Shown here in pieces: positions 52,403-61,906 of a stretch of 64,000 bases of DNA (its first letter is position 1; each line of letters opens with the position of its first letter). Below the pieces are notes generated by a model that saw only the letters and a program-made list of their open reading frames with translations, was not told the origin of the DNA and searched no databases. Where the stretch lies: the NCBI GenBank assembly GCA_965202665.1, contig OZ241841.1:2080001-2144000 (forward strand). Direction: 5' to 3'. The position numbers were made by a program, and so were the translations under genes. The DNA is from Candidatus Spongiisociaceae bacterium. GTDB taxonomy: Bacteria > Actinomycetota > Acidimicrobiia > Spongiisociales > Spongiisociaceae.

Positions 52403-53560
52403 TTGGCCAAACCGGATATGGAAACTTTACCCCCGCCCCCCGCCCCGGACGAACCGGCCCGGACCGCCCCCCCGGAGGAGCCCGTCCCCCAAGAGGGGGC
52501 CGGAGCCGCCGAGCCGCCGCCTTCCGCCGATTCCCCTCCCGAGCGGAACCGTCCGCCCCGTTGGCTGTGGCCGGTCCTGGGCGGGATGGCGGTCCTGCTG
52601 GCCTTGGTTTTAACGGCGGGCCAGATGCGCGTTCCTTTCTACGCCCTGTCCCCCGGCGCGGTGCAGGAAGTGGACGACCTCACCGAAATCACCGGGACTC
52701 CCACCTACAATTTGAACGGCGATCTTTACATGCTCACCGTCACCGTGCAAGAGGTGAACCCCTTCGAGTTGGCGCACGGCTGGTTTTCCCCGGCGGTGGA
52801 CTTGTACCGCCGGGAGGTCATCCGCCCCCGGGACGTGACCCCCGAAGAGCACCGCGAGCGGAACCGTCAGATGATGCGCGACTCGCGTGATATCGCCATC
52901 ACGGTCGCCCTGCGCCATCTCGGTTACGACGTAGGGCAAACGGGGGAGGGGATGCTGGTGGTGGAAGTAGCGGAAGGGTCGCCCGCCGCCGGGGTTTTGC
53001 AACCGGGGGATGTGATCACGGCGGTGGACGGGGAGCCGGTGACGGGGTGGGCGGAGGGGGTGGAGGCCATCCGCTCCAAACAGCCCGGCCAAGCGGCGGA
53101 GTTCACCATCTACCGGGATTCGGAGAAACGCACCGTCCGCCTCACTTTGGCGGAACACACCTCCGAGCCCGGTCAGCCGATGGCCGGCTTCACCCCCGAC
53201 ACCGCCAACCCTTCCCTGCAACTGCCGTTTCCGGTGACCATCGACACCGCCAACTCCGGCGGTCCGTCGGCGGGAATAATGTACGTGCTCGCCATCCTGG
53301 ATCTGCTGACCGAAGAGGATCTGATCAAAGGCAACATTGTGGCCGGGACCGGCGCCATCGACTTGGACGGGACGGTGGGGCCCATCGGCGGCGTCCGCCA
53401 GAAAGTAGTAGCCGCCCAGGAGGCGGGGGCCCGTTTCATCCTGGTGCCGAGGAGAAACTACGCCGACGCCCTGACCGCCAAAAACGACGGAGTGCGGATT
53501 TTTCCCATCGCTTCTTTGGAGGAGGCGTTGGCCGTTTTGGAGGGCCTTCCCCCCGCCTGA
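52403..53560 (+). CDS. YlbL-like PDZ plus Lon-C protease
   Basis: TM, PFYALSPG, PDZ (GSPA..VL.PGDVI), GGPSAG, AGTG.I..DGTVGPIGGV.QK. Confidence 0.92.
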   Translation: MAKPDMETLPPPPAPDEPARTAPPEEPVPQEGAGAAEPPPSADSPPERNRPPRWLWPVLGGMAVLLALVLTAGQMRVPFYALSPGAVQEVDDLTEITGTPTYNLNGDLYMLTVTVQEVNPFELAHGWFSPAVDLYRREVIRPRDVTPEEHRERNRQMMRDSRDIAITVALRHLGYDVGQTGEGMLVVEVAEGSPAAGVLQPGDVITAVDGEPVTGWAEGVEAIRSKQPGQAAEFTIYRDSEKRTVRLTLAEHTSEPGQPMAGFTPDTANPSLQLPFPVTIDTANSGGPSAGIMYVLAILDLLTEEDLIKGNIVAGTGAIDLDGTVGPIGGVRQKVVAAQEAGARFILVPRRNYADALTAKNDGVRIFPIASLEEALAVLEGLPPA

Positions 53561-53596: not shown

Positions 53597-53685
53597 TTGA
53601 CATTTGGGGAGGTTATCCACAGAATAGGGCGGGAAAAGGCTCCGCCATTGGAGTTATCCACAACAAAGGTGTAGAGTTATCCACA
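53597..53685 (+). promoter_or_regulatory. Promoter overlapped by three perfect DnaA boxes
   Basis: TTATCCACA at 53613, 53654 and 53677, same orientation; TTGACA 53597-53602 plus 17 nt plus CAGAAT 53620-53625. Confidence 0.8.
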
Positions 53686-53686
53686 A

Positions 53687-55681
53687 ATGAACGAAAACCC
53701 GACGCCCAACGCCCCGGACGGCGACCGCCCGGTTCCGCCCGAGGCGACTCCCGCGTTCGCCAAAGTGTTCCGCGGTTACGATCCGGCGGAAGTGGACGAC
53801 TACATTTCCAGCCTGGTAACCCGTCTCAAGTTGCATCGGGCCCACCTGCCCGACTCCGAGTTGAGCGGAGAGCAGGGGGCGGAGATGATCGACACCGCGG
53901 CCGCCGACATCGCCGAACTGTTGCAATCCGCCCGGCTGGCCGCCGGGAAAATAAGAAGCCGCGCCGACCATCAAATAGCGGCCGACCTGACCGTCGCCGA
54001 AGCCCAAGCGCGGCAGGTGCGGGAGGACGCCGAAGCCGACGCCTACGCCATGCGCAAGTCGGCCTGGGATATGGCGGCGGAAGCCTTAGAGTCGCTGGAG
54101 GGGCAGGCGGCGGAGATGGAGGCGGAAGCCGACCGCAAGGCTTTGGCCATCATCGGCGAATCGGAGCGCACCGCCCACCGCAACCTGGCCTCCGCCCGCC
54201 GGGAAGGGGAGCGTCTGATGCAGGAGGCGGGGGCCCAAGCGGAGCGGATGCTGATGCAGTCCCGGGAGCAAAGCGAGGAGATGATCGCGGAAAGCGAACG
54301 CCGGGTGGATGTGATCAAAAAGCAAATCAGGTTGGAGTCCAAACGACGGGACGCGTTGGCCGCCGAAGTGAACGAGTTGCGTTCCAAACTGGACGGCCCC
54401 GCCCCGTTGGAGGAGCACGGCGGCTCCGCTATCCGCCTGGTTCCCCCCATGGAGCGGGACAACGGCGACCGCGTCCGGTCCGAACCGGAGGAGCGGGCCC
54501 GCGATGACCGCGCCCCAACCGAGGAGGTCCGCCCGGCCGCTGAGTCGCCCGCGGTGGACGGCCAAGACGTGGCCGAGGAGGTGGCCCTTTTGCGGGAAGC
54601 GGCCGAGGCCAACGGCGAATCGCCCGCCCCCGTCCGCCCGCCCGCCGGGGCGGAAAAGCCGCCTCCCCGACCCCGACCCGACCCGCCCCCGGAGCCGGCC
54701 CGCGTCCGCTCCGAGCCGGAAGACGCCGGCCGGGCGGATCCCGAGCCGGTCCGGGAAGAGTCCCGGTCCAGGTCCCGTTCGGAACCGGAACCGGCCGCCG
54801 GGGAACGCGCCGCGGTTCTGTCCGCGCCGCCGGTGTCGGAGCGGGAGCTGGCCAAGATGTGGTCCACCGGCCAGCCGTTGCGCCGCGCCTACGACGAGGC
54901 GGCCGCCGACAGTTTCGGTTCCCTGTTCGAAGACCTGCGCCGACTGCAGGAAACCGAGGCGGGAGGGGCCGACGGCCCGGCGGCGCCGGCCAAGCCCCCC
55001 GCCCCGCCTCCCCCCCGGCCGGCTGGGGACAAGCCCGTCTCCGCCCGCCCCGCGGAACGGCTGTCGGCGGCGGAGCGTTATCACATGGCGGTGTTCCCCA
55101 TCGCCAACCGCACCTTGCGCAACATCAAACGGCGCCTGATCGACATTCAAAACCAGCAGTTGGAAGCCCTCAAAAACGATCCGGCCAACTGGCAACCGGA
55201 GCGGGCCCGGCTGGAGGAAAGCCTGGCGCGCGATTTGACGATCATGCACCGGGAGGCCTTCGCGGCCGGACGCGCCGCGGCCGGTGAAATCCTGGAGGGG
55301 GCCGGGGCCGCTCCCCATCCCGAAATCCCGGAGGGCGAATCGGAGGTGTTCGTATCGGCCCTGTTCGACGAGTTGGTGCTGACCGTGCAGGCGGGCCGGG
55401 AGAACGGCCATGGGGCCCGCCAGCTGGGGGCCGCCCTTTCCCAGGCCTACCGGGTGTGGCGCACCGACGAAGCCGAACGCCGGGTGCGTTTTTTGGCGGG
55501 CCGCTCCTACCATCGGGGATTGCTGGCCGGGTTCCGGCAGGCGGGAGTGGAGCGGTTGCGGCTGGACTCGGCGGATCCGTGCCGGGAATGCGCCTATGAT
55601 GTAGGGGATTCCCGGCCCGCGGCGGAAGCCGAGCCGTTTCCCGACCATCACGACTGCCGTTGCACCCTGGTTCCGGCTTGA
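53687..55681 (+). CDS. DivIVA-domain coiled-coil protein with C-terminal MuF/gp7-like domain
   Basis: FAKVFRGYDPAEVDDYI (DivIVA), long Ala/Glu/Arg coiled coil, Pro-rich linker, C-terminal AERRVR...YHRG...RQAGV...CREC...PDHHDCRCTLVP. Confidence 0.82.
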   Translation: MNENPTPNAPDGDRPVPPEATPAFAKVFRGYDPAEVDDYISSLVTRLKLHRAHLPDSELSGEQGAEMIDTAAADIAELLQSARLAAGKIRSRADHQIAADLTVAEAQARQVREDAEADAYAMRKSAWDMAAEALESLEGQAAEMEAEADRKALAIIGESERTAHRNLASARREGERLMQEAGAQAERMLMQSREQSEEMIAESERRVDVIKKQIRLESKRRDALAAEVNELRSKLDGPAPLEEHGGSAIRLVPPMERDNGDRVRSEPEERARDDRAPTEEVRPAAESPAVDGQDVAEEVALLREAAEANGESPAPVRPPAGAEKPPPRPRPDPPPEPARVRSEPEDAGRADPEPVREESRSRSRSEPEPAAGERAAVLSAPPVSERELAKMWSTGQPLRRAYDEAAADSFGSLFEDLRRLQETEAGGADGPAAPAKPPAPPPPRPAGDKPVSARPAERLSAAERYHMAVFPIANRTLRNIKRRLIDIQNQQLEALKNDPANWQPERARLEESLARDLTIMHREAFAAGRAAAGEILEGAGAAPHPEIPEGESEVFVSALFDELVLTVQAGRENGHGARQLGAALSQAYRVWRTDEAERRVRFLAGRSYHRGLLAGFRQAGVERLRLDSADPCRECAYDVGDSRPAAEAEPFPDHHDCRCTLVPA

Positions 55682-55763: not shown

Positions 55764-58673
55764 ATGATCAGACGAGACAACCAACGTTCCCGCTCCGGGC
55801 GCCGTTCGCCCCGCCGGTGGATGATCCTGGCCGCCGTCGGGGTGTTGGCCGCCTTTTTGCTCCTCCGGTTTCTAGCCGTTTTCTGGACCGATTTCCTGTG
55901 GTTCGCTTCGGTGGACGCCACTTCGGTGTGGAGCACCCGTTTGCTGTCCCAACTTTGGCTGGGGGCGGCGGGGACGGTCGCCGCCGCCGTTTTGGTGTGG
56001 GTGAACCTGTGGGTCGCCTACCGGATTTCCAGCCGGTTTTCCCTGTACGACGCCAGCCCGGGCGAGGAGCTGATCGTCCGCTTCCGGGAGTGGGTGGAGC
56101 CCCGGGTGCGCTGGTTGCATATCGGGGCGGCGGGGGTGCTGGGATTGTTGCTGGGGGCGGGGGTGTCCGGCTGGTGGCGGGACGTTCTGCTGTTTATGAA
56201 CCAGACCTCTTTCGGCAAAGCCGATCCCATTTTCAGCCGGGACGCCTCCTTCTACGTGTTCCAGTTGCCGGTGTACCGCAACATCGTCGCGTGGTTTTTG
56301 CAGATCGTCATCCTGTGCACCGTGCTGAGCCTGGTGCTGCATTACCTGTACGGGGGCATCCGCATGCGGCAGTCCCGCATCCCCCAGTTCGGGGCGGGGG
56401 TGAAAGCCCACCTGTCGGTTTTGCTGGCCGGTTTGGCCCTTATCAAGGCGGTCGCCTACCAGTTCGACGTGGCCGAGCTGGTGTATTCGTCCCGGGGGGC
56501 GGTGTTCGGGGCTTCCTACACGGATGTGACGGCCCATCGTCCGGCGCTGATCCTGCTCAGCCTGATTTCGGTGTTCGCGGCCGGATTGTTGTTGTGGAAC
56601 ATCCGCGCCCGGGGATGGACTTTGCCGGCGGTGGCGGCCGGGTTGTGGCTGGTGGTGTCGCTGGTGGTGGGGGGGTTGGTGCCGCTGGCCATCGAACGTT
56701 TCCGGGTGCAGCCCAACCAGTTCAACCTGGAAAAAGAATACATCGAGTACCACATCGATTTCACCCGGGAGGCCTACGGGATGGGGGAGGGACGGGTGGA
56801 GGTGCGGGACTTCGCCGCTTCTCCGGATCTGACCGCAACCGACATCGCCGCCAACCAGGCCACGATCGACAATGTGCGGCTGTGGGATCCGGGGGTGCTG
56901 GCCCCCGCCTACCGGCAGTTGCAGGCCATCCGCCCCTACTATCAGATTTCCAACGTGGACACCGACCGCTATGTGATCGACGGCCAGTTGACGCAGGTGA
57001 TGGTGGCCGCCCGCGAGTTGGATTCGGAGGGCCTGCCCGCCACCGGATGGGTGAACGAACGGCTGGTGTACACCCACGGTTTCGGGGAGGTAATTTCCCG
57101 GGCCAACGACGTGAATCCGACCACCGGCGAGCCGGCTTTTCTGGTAAGGGACGTTCCGCCCGCCACCGGCGTTCCCGAACTGGAGACCAAACAGCCCCGC
57201 ATCTATTTCGGGGAGTCGTTCGACACCGGCAGTTACGTGATTGTGGGCACCAACCAGCAGGAGGTGGATTTCCCGTCCGGCCAGGACGACGACGTGGTGC
57301 GCAACACCTATGAGGGGGAGGGCGGGGTGCGGCTGTCCAACTTTGCGGTGGAGGCGGCGATGGCCATGCGGTTCGGCGATTTGAACATCCTGATTTCGCC
57401 GGAGTTGAATTCCCGTTCCAAAATTCTGATGGTGCGGGACGTGACCGACCGGCTGGCCATGGTGGCCCCTTTCCTGTACGCCGACTACGACCCCTATTTG
57501 GCGCTGATCGACGGGCGGCTGGTGTGGATAGCGGACCTGTATTCGGTGACCGACCGGTATCCGTATTCCCAACCGTCGGTGGACGACCGTTTGGGCCGTA
57601 CCGCGCCGTTGCCCCGCAACTTCAATTACATCCGCAATTCGGTGAAAGCGGTGGTGGACGCCGAGGACGGGACGATGGACTTGTACGTGTTGGAGGGGGC
57701 GGACGCCCTGACCCGCACCTACCGCAAAGTGTTCCCGGAAGTGTTCCGGGACGCTTCGGAGATGAGCGACGAGTTGCGCAGCCACCTGCGTTATCCGGAG
57801 GACCTGTTCCGGGTGCAGTCCGACATGTACGCTGTCTACCACCAGTCCGACCCGGAAGTGTTTTTCCAAGAGGAGGACAAATGGGAAATTCCGGGGGAGT
57901 CGGCCACTTCCGCCCGGGAGGTGGTGCGGGGGGACATCATTTCGCTGGCGGGGACGGTGGACGGTTCCTCCCGGCAGAGCCTGCCCTATTACCTGTTGAT
58001 GCGGTTGCCCGGCGAGGAGGACTTGTCGTTTCTGGTGTTGCAAAGTTTCAACCCGGCGGGCCGGGCCAATATGACGGCCTTCATGGTGGCGAAAAGCGAT
58101 CCCGGCTCCTACGGGGAGATCATCGATTACCGACTGCCGAGAGGGGAGTTGATCAACGGGTTGGAGCAGATCAGCGCCCGCATCGACCAGGACCCGGAGA
58201 TTTCCCAGCAGTTTACGCTGTTGGGCCAGCAGGGTTCCGTAATCATCCGGGGGAACCTGCTGGTGGTGCCCATTGAGGAGTCGCTCCTGTTCATCCAGCC
58301 CATCTACCTGCGGGGGGAGGGGTTGGAGTTGCCGGAGTTCAAGCGGGTGGTGGTGGTGTTCGGGGAGGAGACCCCCCCGATTATGCGCGGCACGCTGGAG
58401 GAGGCCTTAGCGGTGATCTTCGGGGAGGGCGCCGTTCCGGATCCGGATGCCGAAGTTGCGGAGCCGGACCAGCCCGCTCAGCCCGACCCGCCGGACGAGC
58501 CGTCCGCCCCCGCCCCCGACGTCCCCGACGACCTGAACGCTTTGGTGGCCGAGATCGACCGCCTGCTTTCCGAGGCCGACCAGGCCCTCCGCTCCGGCGA
58601 CCTGGGGGCCTACCAGTCCAAAGTGGACGAAGCCCGCGCCCTGGCAACCCGCCTAACCGCCCTGATCGGCTGA
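55764..58673 (+). CDS. UPF0182 family membrane protein
   Basis: WTDFLWF, DPIF..D.SFYVF.LP, GASYTDV, NVRLWDP, YTHGFG, NYIRNSVK, H.RYPEDLF. Confidence 0.95.
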   Translation: MIRRDNQRSRSGRRSPRRWMILAAVGVLAAFLLLRFLAVFWTDFLWFASVDATSVWSTRLLSQLWLGAAGTVAAAVLVWVNLWVAYRISSRFSLYDASPGEELIVRFREWVEPRVRWLHIGAAGVLGLLLGAGVSGWWRDVLLFMNQTSFGKADPIFSRDASFYVFQLPVYRNIVAWFLQIVILCTVLSLVLHYLYGGIRMRQSRIPQFGAGVKAHLSVLLAGLALIKAVAYQFDVAELVYSSRGAVFGASYTDVTAHRPALILLSLISVFAAGLLLWNIRARGWTLPAVAAGLWLVVSLVVGGLVPLAIERFRVQPNQFNLEKEYIEYHIDFTREAYGMGEGRVEVRDFAASPDLTATDIAANQATIDNVRLWDPGVLAPAYRQLQAIRPYYQISNVDTDRYVIDGQLTQVMVAARELDSEGLPATGWVNERLVYTHGFGEVISRANDVNPTTGEPAFLVRDVPPATGVPELETKQPRIYFGESFDTGSYVIVGTNQQEVDFPSGQDDDVVRNTYEGEGGVRLSNFAVEAAMAMRFGDLNILISPELNSRSKILMVRDVTDRLAMVAPFLYADYDPYLALIDGRLVWIADLYSVTDRYPYSQPSVDDRLGRTAPLPRNFNYIRNSVKAVVDAEDGTMDLYVLEGADALTRTYRKVFPEVFRDASEMSDELRSHLRYPEDLFRVQSDMYAVYHQSDPEVFFQEEDKWEIPGESATSAREVVRGDIISLAGTVDGSSRQSLPYYLLMRLPGEEDLSFLVLQSFNPAGRANMTAFMVAKSDPGSYGEIIDYRLPRGELINGLEQISARIDQDPEISQQFTLLGQQGSVIIRGNLLVVPIEESLLFIQPIYLRGEGLELPEFKRVVVVFGEETPPIMRGTLEEALAVIFGEGAVPDPDAEVAEPDQPAQPDPPDEPSAPAPDVPDDLNALVAEIDRLLSEADQALRSGDLGAYQSKVDEARALATRLTALIG

Positions 58674-58733: not shown

Positions 58734-58811
58734 CGCGGGGTGGAGCAGTCTGGTCAGCTCGTCGGGCTCATAACCCGAAGGTCGCAGGTTCAAATCCTGC
58801 CCCCGCTACCA
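58734..58811 (+). tRNA. Initiator tRNA-fMet, anticodon CAT
   Basis: CGCGGGG...CCCCGCT-A-CCA with unpaired first position, anticodon stem TCGGG-CT-CAT-AA-CCCGA (3 G-C pairs), GGTTCAAATCC. Confidence 0.97.
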
Positions 58812-58940: not shown

Positions 58941-60266
58941 ATGGTTAAACAATACGAAATCCGCGACCCGGTGCTTTCTTTCATCGGGGTTGATTCGGGT
59001 GAGCGGCGGGTGATAGATTCCCGGCCGGTGCAACGGCTCCGCTACATTCGCCAGCTGGCCACATCGTATCTGATATACCCGGGGGCGACGCACACCCGGT
59101 TCGAACATTCGCTGGGCACGATGGAGCTGGCGGGCCGGATTTACGACGCGGTGACCGTTCCGTCGCGCTCCAACGGTTTCGTCTTCCAAGCCTTGCCCGA
59201 GCTGCGGGAAGGGGAGGAACGCTCTTATTGGAGGCGGGTGGTTCGGATGGCGGGACTATGCCACGACCTCGGCCATCTGCCGTTTTCCCACGCCGCCGAG
59301 CACGAACTGCTCCCCGAAGAATGGAGCCACGAGCGTCTCACTTACGAGATTATCCGCTCCAAAGAGATGACCGAAGTTTTGTCAAGCGGCAGGCCGCCGG
59401 TGGATTCCGAGGATGTGGCGCGGATCGCAGTGGGGCAGAAGCACTGGATCGAGAAAGCTCTGACCCCTATGGAAACTATCCTGTCCGAGATTATCGGCGG
59501 AGACGCGCTGGGGGCGGACCGGATGGATTACCTGCTACGGGATTCGTTGCACGCCGGCGTGGCCTATGGTCGCTTCGATTACCATCGCCTGATCGGAACC
59601 CTCCGGATTCTGCCCTCCTTCTCGCTGGATGAGGAAGACAAGGGACGGCCGATGTTGGGAGTGGAGTGGGGCGGGATTCAGTCGGCGGAGGCCCTGCTGA
59701 TGGCCAGGTATTTTATGTTCTCTCAAGTATATTTTCATAAGATAAGAATGATTTACGACCTTCATCTTATCGATTTCCTGAAAGATTGGCTTCCTGGTGG
59801 ACGATTTAAGACCGATATCGAATCCCATCTGAAGTTCACGGACAGCGAAATCATCGCCGCCATCCGCGAGGCCGGTTACGATGAGGGCATGGACGGGCAT
59901 AAATGGGCGCATCGCTTGGCGAATCGCAAGCACTTTCGGGTGCTCGATCCGGGCCGCCCGCAACATGCGGCTCAGAATTCGAGGATGGCGAAAGCCATCT
60001 GCCGGGCCGCGCAAGCCAAATTCGGGGCGGATTTCGCGCGGGCGGCCCATCCTCCGCCTAAAGAGAGCAAGTTGGAGTTTCCGGTTCTGATGGAGGACGA
60101 AAAAGTTCAATCGTCGCTTACCGTGTCGCAGGTGTTTGCTTCTCTTCCCGTTCCAACACCCGGTTATGTTTACGTCGATGAGAGAATATTGGATGAAGCC
60201 CGAAAATGGTTGGCGAAGCATCGCGATCACATTATTAAGGAAGCATCTCAAGGAGGAGGTGAATAA
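58941..60266 (+). CDS. HD-domain phosphohydrolase (SAMHD1/YwfO-like dNTPase family)
   Basis: IRDPV, QRLRYIRQL, YPGATHTRFEHSLG, CHDLGHLPFSH, DRMDYLLRDS, R..MFSQVYFHK. Confidence 0.92.
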   Translation: MVKQYEIRDPVLSFIGVDSGERRVIDSRPVQRLRYIRQLATSYLIYPGATHTRFEHSLGTMELAGRIYDAVTVPSRSNGFVFQALPELREGEERSYWRRVVRMAGLCHDLGHLPFSHAAEHELLPEEWSHERLTYEIIRSKEMTEVLSSGRPPVDSEDVARIAVGQKHWIEKALTPMETILSEIIGGDALGADRMDYLLRDSLHAGVAYGRFDYHRLIGTLRILPSFSLDEEDKGRPMLGVEWGGIQSAEALLMARYFMFSQVYFHKIRMIYDLHLIDFLKDWLPGGRFKTDIESHLKFTDSEIIAAIREAGYDEGMDGHKWAHRLANRKHFRVLDPGRPQHAAQNSRMAKAICRAAQAKFGADFARAAHPPPKESKLEFPVLMEDEKVQSSLTVSQVFASLPVPTPGYVYVDERILDEARKWLAKHRDHIIKEASQGGGE

Positions 60267-61906
60267 TGGACCTTTTGCGGAAGATAGCGTTGGTTTCCGA
60301 ACTGTTGGACCGGATACGGGCCAACAACGTTTGGGCGGGCCCGGTTCACCTGCAGAAGAGCATGTTCTTCTTGCAGGAGATGCGGGGAGTCCCGCTGGAC
60401 TTCGAGTTCGTTCTGTACCGATACGGGCCGTACTCTTTTGAGTTGCAGGACGAGATCGAATATATCCGAGGGTCGGGGTTTCTGAAGTGGTTTTTTCACG
60501 ACTCCCCCGGCTATGCCACCGGCCTAGAAACTACCGAGGCCAGTCGCAATATCCGCGACAAACTTCCCAAGCTTATGGATAAGTACGAGGATGATTTGGC
60601 CTTTGTGTCCGAAAATATCGGTCCTATGAGGTCCATGCAACTAGAGCGGGTATCGACTTCCTTTTATTACATGGTGAAGGGCTTGGAAGGCGACGAGGAT
60701 ATCGCCCGCGAGGTTTGCAAGGTAAAACCGCATATTGATTACTCGGACGCGGCAGAGGCTGTGCAACAGGTCCGCCAGTTCGCCGAGCAGTCAGGTTGGC
60801 GCCGTATGGACAGCGTAACTTGGCCAATCGAACCTCATACTTTAGCTAAGCACGACCTCCTTCGTAGGTATCTCGGAGATTGGTTTCCTATTATGTACAA
60901 GCGCAACAAGAGAATTATATATCTCGATGCTTTTGCTGGTCCTGGTGTTTACGCGGGCGGTGAGCCAGGGTCGCCTTTGATTGCACTGGAAACACTTATT
61001 ACGCATAAGTCATTTCCAAAGATGAGTGAAACAGAATTTGGGTTTGTATTTATAGAAAAGGATAAATCGAAGTGTCAAAGGCTGGAGCAAGAAATAGAAA
61101 CCTTTTGGCTAAAGCAGGGAATAGATAAGCCCTCGAATATAGAAATCGATGTGATAAACGATGAATTTATGAATATTGCTCAGGATGTTCTTAATAAAAT
61201 TGAACCTAAAGGTGCAACACTAGCACCTGCTTTTGCTTTTATTGATCCTTTTGGTTGGTCCGATATTAGATTCGATCTAATGATGCAAATTGTTTCCTTT
61301 GATAAGTGGGAAATTTTATTTACCTTTATGGTTGAGCATATTTCTCGCTTCTTAAATAAACCAAATACACAAAAATCTTTACAAGGTTTTTTTGGCACAG
61401 ATAAATATAGAGATTTTGTTTCTCTATCTGGTGATAAAAGGATAGAATCTTTAAGAGATCTATTTGTTGATCAGTTAAGAGAAAAAGGTTCTTTCTCGCA
61501 TGTAACACCATTTGAAATGGTTAGCAATAGAGGTAAGACCGAGTGTTTTTTGATTCACGGCACACGTCATATAAAAGGGCTTCAAGTAATGAAGGATGCA
61601 ATGTGGAAGTTGGATCCGACCGGTAACTATCAATTCGAGGCAAGGTGGAAGGGACAGGAAGTTCTTTTTGGCCCTAATTATATCAAAGATCTCAAAAAAG
61701 AGTTTATTGAAGAATTCAAAGGAAGAGAGGTATCAATTTCAGAAATAGAGAATTACGTATTAACAGATACTCTCTATACTAAAAACCATGTAGTACCAAC
61801 TTTGAAAGAAATGGAAAAAGAGATAGAAAATAAAGGAATAATATTAGCAACAAACCGTCAAAGAAAGAGAACATATCCGTCTGGCACTAAAATTACATTC
61901 TTCTGA
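60266..61906 (+). CDS. Fusion of YwgA-like domain (aa 1-180) and three-Cys-motif partner protein TcmP (from Met181, nt 60806)
   Basis: LQKSMFF...F....YGPYSFEL...GFL; then WPIEPHTLAKH.LL.RYL..W, YLDAFAGPG, FAFIDPFG, LIHGT.H..G...MKDAMW; GC drops sharply near 60806. Confidence 0.85.
   Translation: MDLLRKIALVSELLDRIRANNVWAGPVHLQKSMFFLQEMRGVPLDFEFVLYRYGPYSFELQDEIEYIRGSGFLKWFFHDSPGYATGLETTEASRNIRDKLPKLMDKYEDDLAFVSENIGPMRSMQLERVSTSFYYMVKGLEGDEDIAREVCKVKPHIDYSDAAEAVQQVRQFAEQSGWRRMDSVTWPIEPHTLAKHDLLRRYLGDWFPIMYKRNKRIIYLDAFAGPGVYAGGEPGSPLIALETLITHKSFPKMSETEFGFVFIEKDKSKCQRLEQEIETFWLKQGIDKPSNIEIDVINDEFMNIAQDVLNKIEPKGATLAPAFAFIDPFGWSDIRFDLMMQIVSFDKWEILFTFMVEHISRFLNKPNTQKSLQGFFGTDKYRDFVSLSGDKRIESLRDLFVDQLREKGSFSHVTPFEMVSNRGKTECFLIHGTRHIKGLQVMKDAMWKLDPTGNYQFEARWKGQEVLFGPNYIKDLKKEFIEEFKGREVSISEIENYVLTDTLYTKNHVVPTLKEMEKEIENKGIILATNRQRKRTYPSGTKITFF

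Follow-up and report, generated by a model that had tools for sequence, protein, structure and literature searches.

DivIVA-like proteins, among them DivIVA/Wag31, GpsB, FilP, Scy and the PolyDIV proteins (PF05103; structures 2WUJ, 6LFA and 4UG3), have in common an RGYDxxEVD motif and a coiled-coil helix. According to the accessible part of a 2023 survey, they dimerise through the N-terminal domain and localise to curved membranes, and a single cluster, a PolyDIV kinase, was described to carry an extra folded domain (PMC9858780). The MuF proteins, represented by Mu gpF, SPP1 gp7, portal-MuF fusions and MuF polymorphic toxins, share a four-helix body and a CxxC...PxHxxCxC tail; about one in three tailed phages has MuF, which is found to 96% in a prophage context and whose function is poorly known (PMC5576092). 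SPP1 gp7 binds the portal; non-specific binding to DNA was proposed for it, and assembly does not require it (PMC6316719, PMC4493119). Here, a gene is described from a window of 64,000 nucleotides of a Candidatus Spongiisociaceae bacterium of the class Acidimicrobiia (GCA_965202665.1, contig OZ241841.1, positions 2,080,001 to 2,144,000), which very probably carries a MuF-derived domain on a DivIVA paralogue. The fusion is apparently an undescribed, class-wide branch of DivIVA-like proteins with a domesticated MuF domain.

The open reading frame was confirmed to begin with a true DivIVA domain and a hendecad helix, which a disordered linker connects to a domain of MuF/gp7 fold. Its features are as follows:

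53687..55681, forward strand: DivIVA, coiled-coil, linker and MuF-like fusion gene, 664 amino acids (open reading frame, profiles, model)
53753..53842, forward strand: DivIVA-like N-terminal domain, residues 23-52, RGYDxxEVD loop and first helix (profiles, model)
53873..54388, forward strand: helix of 172 residues, residues 63-234, with hendecad periodicity, matching the Wag31 rod (profile, model)
54389..55066, forward strand: disordered linker rich in Pro, Glu and Asp, residues 235-460, with short predicted helices at 292-308, 385-393 and 409-425
54911..54961, forward strand: conserved linker motif, residues 409-425, core [LIVAM]-F-x-x-L-[RK] (orthologue counts)
55067..55678, forward strand: MuF/gp7-fold domain, residues 461-664, four long helices and then a Cys/His tail
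55580..55663, forward strand: Cys/His tail C632-x2-C635 ... P652-x-H654-x2-C657-x-C659, predicted metal site

The N-terminal motif, RGYDPAEVD at residues 29-37, had been recognised as that of DivIVA in an earlier, sequence-only reading of this DNA, and PF05103 (29.3 bits, cut-off 28) and TIGR03544 both match the protein above their cut-offs. The Wag31 model NF050102 aligns with residues 23-232 at 26.4 bits, with a cut-off of 260, so that the protein is not a canonical orthologue. The profile of the family detects the solved N-terminal domains of 2WUJ (E 1.2e-10), 6LFA (6.9e-7) and GpsB. In a full-length model, built from an alignment of 140 sequences, residues 24-52 form a DivIVA-type loop and helix, with the helix following the motif at 33-52 as the coiled coil typical of the superfamily, and the C-terminal domain (461-664) is predicted with confidence; a model of this domain by itself has a pLDDT of 92. 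The rod resembles that of Wag31, and its periodicity is 11/3 (2.56) and not 7/2 (0.01); hendecad repeats are shared with FilP and Scy (PMC9858780). A long coiled coil had been claimed and is present, although with 172 residues it is shorter than the proposed length of about 200. The claimed Pro-rich linker was found at residues 236-457, with 18% Pro and low pLDDT, and the C-terminal residues quoted earlier (C632, C635, H654, C657, C659) are in place. Compared to the DivIVA-like superfamily, the fusion adds a folded C-terminal domain on a linker of 220 residues. In the full-text literature that could be searched, with most subscription papers outside it, no paper was found for DivIVA with MuF, Phage_Mu_F or Acidimicrobiia, in line with the earlier statement that no description of this architecture was known; the muf table of PMC5576092 could include genes of this kind.

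The genome contains a canonical divIVA in a sepF-yggT-ileS block (G000:C1:2560791), and the fusion gene, which lies between ylbL and UPF0182 and not in a ylmE-sepF-yggT-divIVA-ileS block, is therefore a separate paralogue. The genes around the canonical divIVA were recognised by eye. The canonical protein (L001:1489-1947, G000:C1:2560779) consists of 152 residues and is without a long rod, and in five other genomes, one of them outside the class, a second DivIVA frame of 316-470 residues exists beside the fusion. The ileS-like frame next to the canonical divIVA has only 371 residues, so this region may hold a frameshift or an assembly error.

For the C-terminal domain, no MuF profile, including PF04233 and TIGR01641, matched the window protein alone in direct profile scans, and PF04233 had no match anywhere in the genome. 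The likeness to MuF/gp7 claimed in the sequence-only reading was borne out over the whole length of the domain by its orthologues and by structure, whereas the window protein by itself misses the profiles. In a language-model search (Atlas), Phage_Mu_F clusters ranked first (0.95, 177 shared features). The portal-MuF family phrog_2662 was matched by 19 of 36 orthologue domains (best 2.5e-14), with nearly the whole domain (residues 17-209) aligned to the C-terminal MuF part of the profile (537-706). Weak matches were obtained with TIGR01641 (11 of 36, best 7e-4) and PF04233 (5 of 36, best 0.0025), and the curated cut-off of MuF1 (PF04233/TIGR01641) is not reached by the window protein. An hhalign comparison with 59 PF04233 proteins gave 97.7% at E 1.9e-12 over the C-terminal 113 columns. 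Foldseek against BFVD returned 27 matches at E<=0.001 with TM scores up to 0.72, the named ones being minor-capsid, head-morphogenesis or portal-type proteins; in sequence and fold searches of the PDB, no MuF chain was among the matches, the best (Z 8.3) being a designed bundle. Matches in phages by tblastn were located in genes just 3' of the portal (Salgado, Lalka27a, ValentiniPuff) or at the C-terminal end of portal fusions (Strzyga, Polewnik). One tblastn search of phages was empty, and no relatives came up when single proteins were used to scan contigs from metagenomes and viruses.

A profile made of cellular domains only found 92 of 98 PF04233 proteins at E<1e-3 (one non-PF04233 cellular fragment dropped), with the best reversed-sequence control at 8.7e-5 and the next at 0.32; these 98 proteins form one clade, having come from a search with a profile that included one phage MuF (L115). 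Taken over these comparisons, the C-terminal domain is very probably MuF by descent, and not a member by cut-off or context. The absence of any profile match for the window protein, the weak matches of its orthologues to PF04233 and TIGR01641, the absence of the gp7 signature RIARTE from the cellular domains and the lack of a root in the tree described below would also suit a domain whose only likeness to MuF lies in its Cys/His motif and its helices, or an old cellular domain borrowed by phages. Both readings are very improbable, since the profile and fold matches cover the whole domain, the cellular-only profile recovers most of one PF04233 clade, and MuF was seen by Foldseek and tblastn in tailed viruses of both bacteria and archaea, while the cellular form occupies part of one phylum, the only one searched. 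Compared to the MuF superfamily, the domain belongs to a chromosomal core gene with no portal or terminase nearby (phrog_2662 had no portal match in the genome at E<=1e-8), and it has no toxin extension. In common with the portal-MuF fusions, MuF is placed C-terminal to an oligomeric positioning scaffold, which is the portal there and DivIVA here.

Conservation was analysed for 291 orthologues with both ends, a set biased towards tail-bearing matches. In the MuF domain, K481 (99%), R478 (97%), N489 (96%), R589 (95%), R482 (93%) and W591 (92%) are conserved, as is Q488. The basic residues (87-99%) are conserved above or level with the Cys/His residues (79-94%) and are kept in tail-less orthologues; the first helix of prophage portal-MuF fusions, which matches the cellular one, is also rich in Arg. 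In the DivIVA domain, F24, G30 and V36 are conserved to 97-99%, and the motif is present in a loose form in 269 and in a strict form in 44 of the 291. The tail of the window protein has all of C632, C635, P652, H654, C657 and C659, as in the MuF superfamily. Conservation of the Cys/His residues had been expected, and 264 of the 291 keep the CxC end; however, the tail was lost in about seven separate lineages, as counted by eye on the tree, and the Cys/His set is therefore not the functional core. The linker motif, preceded by acidic residues, occurs in 237 of the 291 orthologues (shuffled mean 0.6, maximum 3) and is likely a binding motif; it was absent from the earlier account. It may resemble the N-terminal helix of PopZ, a likeness on which a literature search found nothing. 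A coupling analysis of the 291 sequences (Neff 226) gave no coherent signal between the modules.

The family was identified by a profile search in 144 of 201 genomes of the Acidimicrobiia, nearly always in single copy. The misses are concentrated in family f12, with genomes of 0.7-1.1 Mb (0 of 47), and family f11 (2 of 7); outside these two, 142 of 147 genomes contain the fusion family. In a phylum sample of 301 genomes, matches were obtained in all 22 genomes of the class and in 12 of the 279 others. These 12 comprise eight full fusions before UPF0182, one genome with two tandem DivIVA-less copies at this place, a contig-end fragment before UPF0182, a lone copy and a phage-type MuF; one non-class lineage with the fusion is the Egibacteraceae/Nitriliruptorales (L128-L130). 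Among 77 loci, which were chosen for spread and odd forms at a time when the synteny had not yet been recognised, 75 have UPF0182 as the gene that follows, and ylbL is close upstream in 61; a tRNA-Met is present in 12 of 40 loci. Both loci in which the fusion is separated from UPF0182 belong to f11 and contain the most decayed, tail-less domains. A PPA1309-family gene (L211-L214), a candidate for the slot that was tested by search and locus inspection, fills the space between ylbL and UPF0182 in four of four loci examined. The 13 sampled genomes with PPA1309 have no fusion match, and the two never occur together in the 301 genomes. Two genomes (G033, G099) have two copies each of the whole ylbL-fusion-UPF0182 block, by duplication or by mixture of bins. 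Of the 83 class matches found with a single sequence, one (L070) was checked and rejected as spurious, being a glycosidase; the true orthologue of the same genome (L122) was found by profile.

A quick unrooted tree of 102 domains places the 78 cellular ones together (support 92, unstarred), apart from 23 viral ones, and the order to which the window belongs is one clade with a support of 100. The family is inherited vertically from one origin. The domain is inferred to have come from phage once, early in actinobacterial history, because the viral range is wide and the cellular range is narrow. The survey of architecture and synteny called for earlier revealed a conserved fusion in a fixed position, and the suggested domestication agrees with it. 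The gene is a clear example of a domain from the phage head that cells have retained for a very long time in their core genome. A lone MuF-like open reading frame of 244 residues (L114:1250-1984, G224:C130), with phage, ylbL and UPF0182 genes not seen in 9 kb, is sister to the cellular group in the quick tree and is possibly a relic or a second domestication.

Each module has been lost in some relatives. In the sister genus G182 (L202:4482-5708, G182:C5), DivIVA, rod and linker are kept, and the protein ends right after the LFxxLR motif, without a MuF domain. In family f15 (L035:6753-8435, L043:6996-8423, L146-L153), the DivIVA motif is missing, and a short coil with the end of the rod, the linker motif and an intact MuF domain are left, still between ylbL and UPF0182. 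G203 (L113:7732-10426, G203:C4) contains two tandem coil-plus-MuF genes without a DivIVA motif before UPF0182, also with the rod end kept. The linker motif is retained in the G182 form and in eight of the ten DivIVA-less f15 proteins. Together with a soluble cellular MuF domain, these natural deletions of tail, DivIVA end and whole domain make the ligand directly testable.

The region upstream of the gene contains the following elements:

53613..53685, forward strand: three perfect DnaA boxes (53613-21, 53654-62, 53677-85) that overlap with elements resembling promoters
53597..53625, forward strand: sigma-70-like promoter match, 10 of 12, its spacer and -10 overlapping DnaA box 1
53672-53677: second -10-like hexamer, 9 nt before the ATG (from the sequence)

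Three perfect boxes compare with 0.12 expected, and none of 100 shuffles reached three; they lie within 73 bp 5' of the ATG, and nowhere else in the genome do three boxes occur within 150 bp. A leaderless transcript would probably start inside box 3, and a leaderless-type -10 precedes 24 of 53 orthologues (shuffled mean 1.6, maximum 5). The sister genus G182 retains boxes 2 and 3, one of them with a mismatch, in the same promoter arrangement. Of the control by DnaA claimed in the sequence-only reading, the boxes are real, unique in the genome and kept in G182; as only one of 53 other orthologues has a box upstream, such control is not general, and repression by DnaA is likely for this bacterial family alone. 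The boxes over the promoter suggest here a link to the cell cycle. The cluster was also considered as oriC and rejected: the skew reaches its minimum near 1.32 Mb, and dnaA, at 1.347 Mb, is 787 kb from the boxes. The genome has 22 perfect DnaA boxes, and four of them (G000:C1:388664, 606756, 1688086, 1786972) have the same flanking sequence, which suggests a repeated element carrying a DnaA box.

The protein is in all likelihood a housekeeping pole adaptor and not a defence factor. For its role, a pole-anchored tether gripping DNA near the cell pole is tentatively preferred, by analogy, because the basic face is conserved, gp7 gives a precedent and chromosome anchoring based on DivIVA exists in actinobacteria, as described in PMC7022226. 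By DivIVA biology, the N-terminal domain would dimerise and target curved membrane at poles and septa, and the hendecad rod would oligomerise, perhaps with canonical DivIVA. Basic residues along one face of the bundle (R478, K481, R482, R496, R589) may bind the DNA backbone, like gp7 at the portal; this is the weakest step, and DNA as the ligand is somewhat less likely than not. The metal tail would only stabilise the fold, the LFxxLR motif would recruit a protein partner, and the MuF domain on its long flexible linker would hold the chromosome near the pole. An oligomeric scaffold at the pole whose disordered regions contain short motifs, and which would here hold chromosome or segregation proteins, is shared with Wag31-ParA, Scy-ParA, DivIVA-ParB and PopZ-ParB (PMC7022226). 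These anchors act through ParA/ParB, whereas here the grip would come from a domain of phage type within the same polypeptide. DNA anchoring is plausible, and it would be a new way of anchoring the chromosome at the pole. That an ancestor of Acidimicrobiia and early-branching actinobacteria exchanged the portal of a portal-MuF fusion for a copy of DivIVA, giving a ParAB-independent chromosome anchor repressed by DnaA in some lineages, is a speculative and rather doubtful scenario; if true, a virion structural protein was domesticated as a cell-cycle component.

Several observations weigh against the DNA tether. The C-terminal domain is net acidic (-3 in the window, cellular median -5), as against a pI of about 9 for gp7 (PMC6316719, PMC4493119); prophage portal-fused domains are more acidic than the cellular ones, at -13 to -20. 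G182 has lost the MuF domain but not the rest of the gene, f15 and G203 have lost the DivIVA motif, and the gene is present in none of the 47 streamlined f12 genomes; these separate losses of the ends and of the whole gene indicate that it is not essential everywhere and that the two ends need not act together. A DnaA box precedes 1 of the 53 other orthologues, which does not fit a family-wide DnaA regulon, and the tree is quick and unrooted with an unstarred support of 92, the direction from phage to cell being drawn from distribution only. Finally, a DNA tether gives no reason for the close association with UPF0182. This link, which persists in 75 of the 77 loci even where ylbL has moved away and is broken only in the two f11 loci with decayed domains, would be accounted for if the MuF domain docks on a UPF0182 oligomer or FtsH/YccA, bringing membrane-protein quality control and YlbL to poles and septa and so linking polarity with that control. 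A preprint connects UPF0182 with the regulation of FtsH and predicts that it forms a tetramer (bioRxiv 10.1101/2025.11.14.688347), and gp7 likewise binds an oligomeric ring (PMC6316719, PMC4493119). The same preprint, however, places UPF0182 mostly outside the cytoplasm. UPF0182 also stays in 42 of 47 f12 genomes without the fusion, with ylbL directly adjacent in three of three loci, the unrelated PPA1309 occupies the slot in genomes without a MuF domain, the MuF-less gene of G182 still adjoins UPF0182, and the leaderless-type promoters indicate that many orthologues have a promoter of their own, so the adjacency may be the inertia of an old gene block. Such docking is somewhat unlikely and ranks close behind the DNA tether.

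A purely structural role is less likely still, in which a FilP/Scy-like hendecad scaffold would form a lattice or condensate at the pole, cross-linked by the MuF domain and LFxxLR as self-association stickers and having no outside ligand. The strong 11/3 periodicity, known from FilP and Scy (PMC9858780), the multivalent build, in which a disordered linker with short helices joins the rod to a folded end, and the retention of rod end and linker motif through most losses would fit it, and as the canonical DivIVA here has only 152 residues, the paralogue may supply the rod. The longer canonical frames kept beside the fusion in the five other genomes argue against this, and the near-invariant exposed basic residues suggest an outside ligand. 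Very unlikely, and last among these roles, is the interception of phage DNA or procapsids raised in the sequence-only reading, by which a pole-anchored MuF domain would act as a decoy for phage portals, procapsids or incoming DNA. The SPP1 protein binds portal and, as proposed, DNA (PMC6316719, PMC4493119), and the closest profile is that of a portal-fused MuF; but a single copy in fixed position, descended vertically across the class, is unlike patchy defence genes, the protein has no effector domain and no PADLOC match, and those genes of the window that do resemble defence genes are found apart from it, in a low-GC island 3' of the tRNA.

The neighbourhood of the fusion gene consists of:

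52403..53560, forward strand: YlbL/SepM-type PDZ-Lon protease, upstream neighbour (profiles)
55764..58673, forward strand: UPF0182 membrane protein, downstream neighbour (profile)
58734-58811: tRNA-Met(CAT)

The block of ylbL, UPF0182 and tRNA-fMet named earlier was recovered as PDZ-Lon protease, UPF0182 and tRNA-Met(CAT), a putative initiator tRNA. The host-like GC content (0.67-0.70 around the gene, 0.64 in the genome) was likewise confirmed, and no phage genes are nearby among the classified open reading frames of 44-64 kb. Directly 3' of the tRNA-Met, a low-GC island (58941-61906) contains a gene for an HD-domain dGTPase-like protein of 441 residues and one for a fusion of 546 residues, of which the N-terminal part resembles DarG and the C-terminal part matches the PADLOC candidate PDC-M30A (E 1e-62). 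It is likely a defence island.

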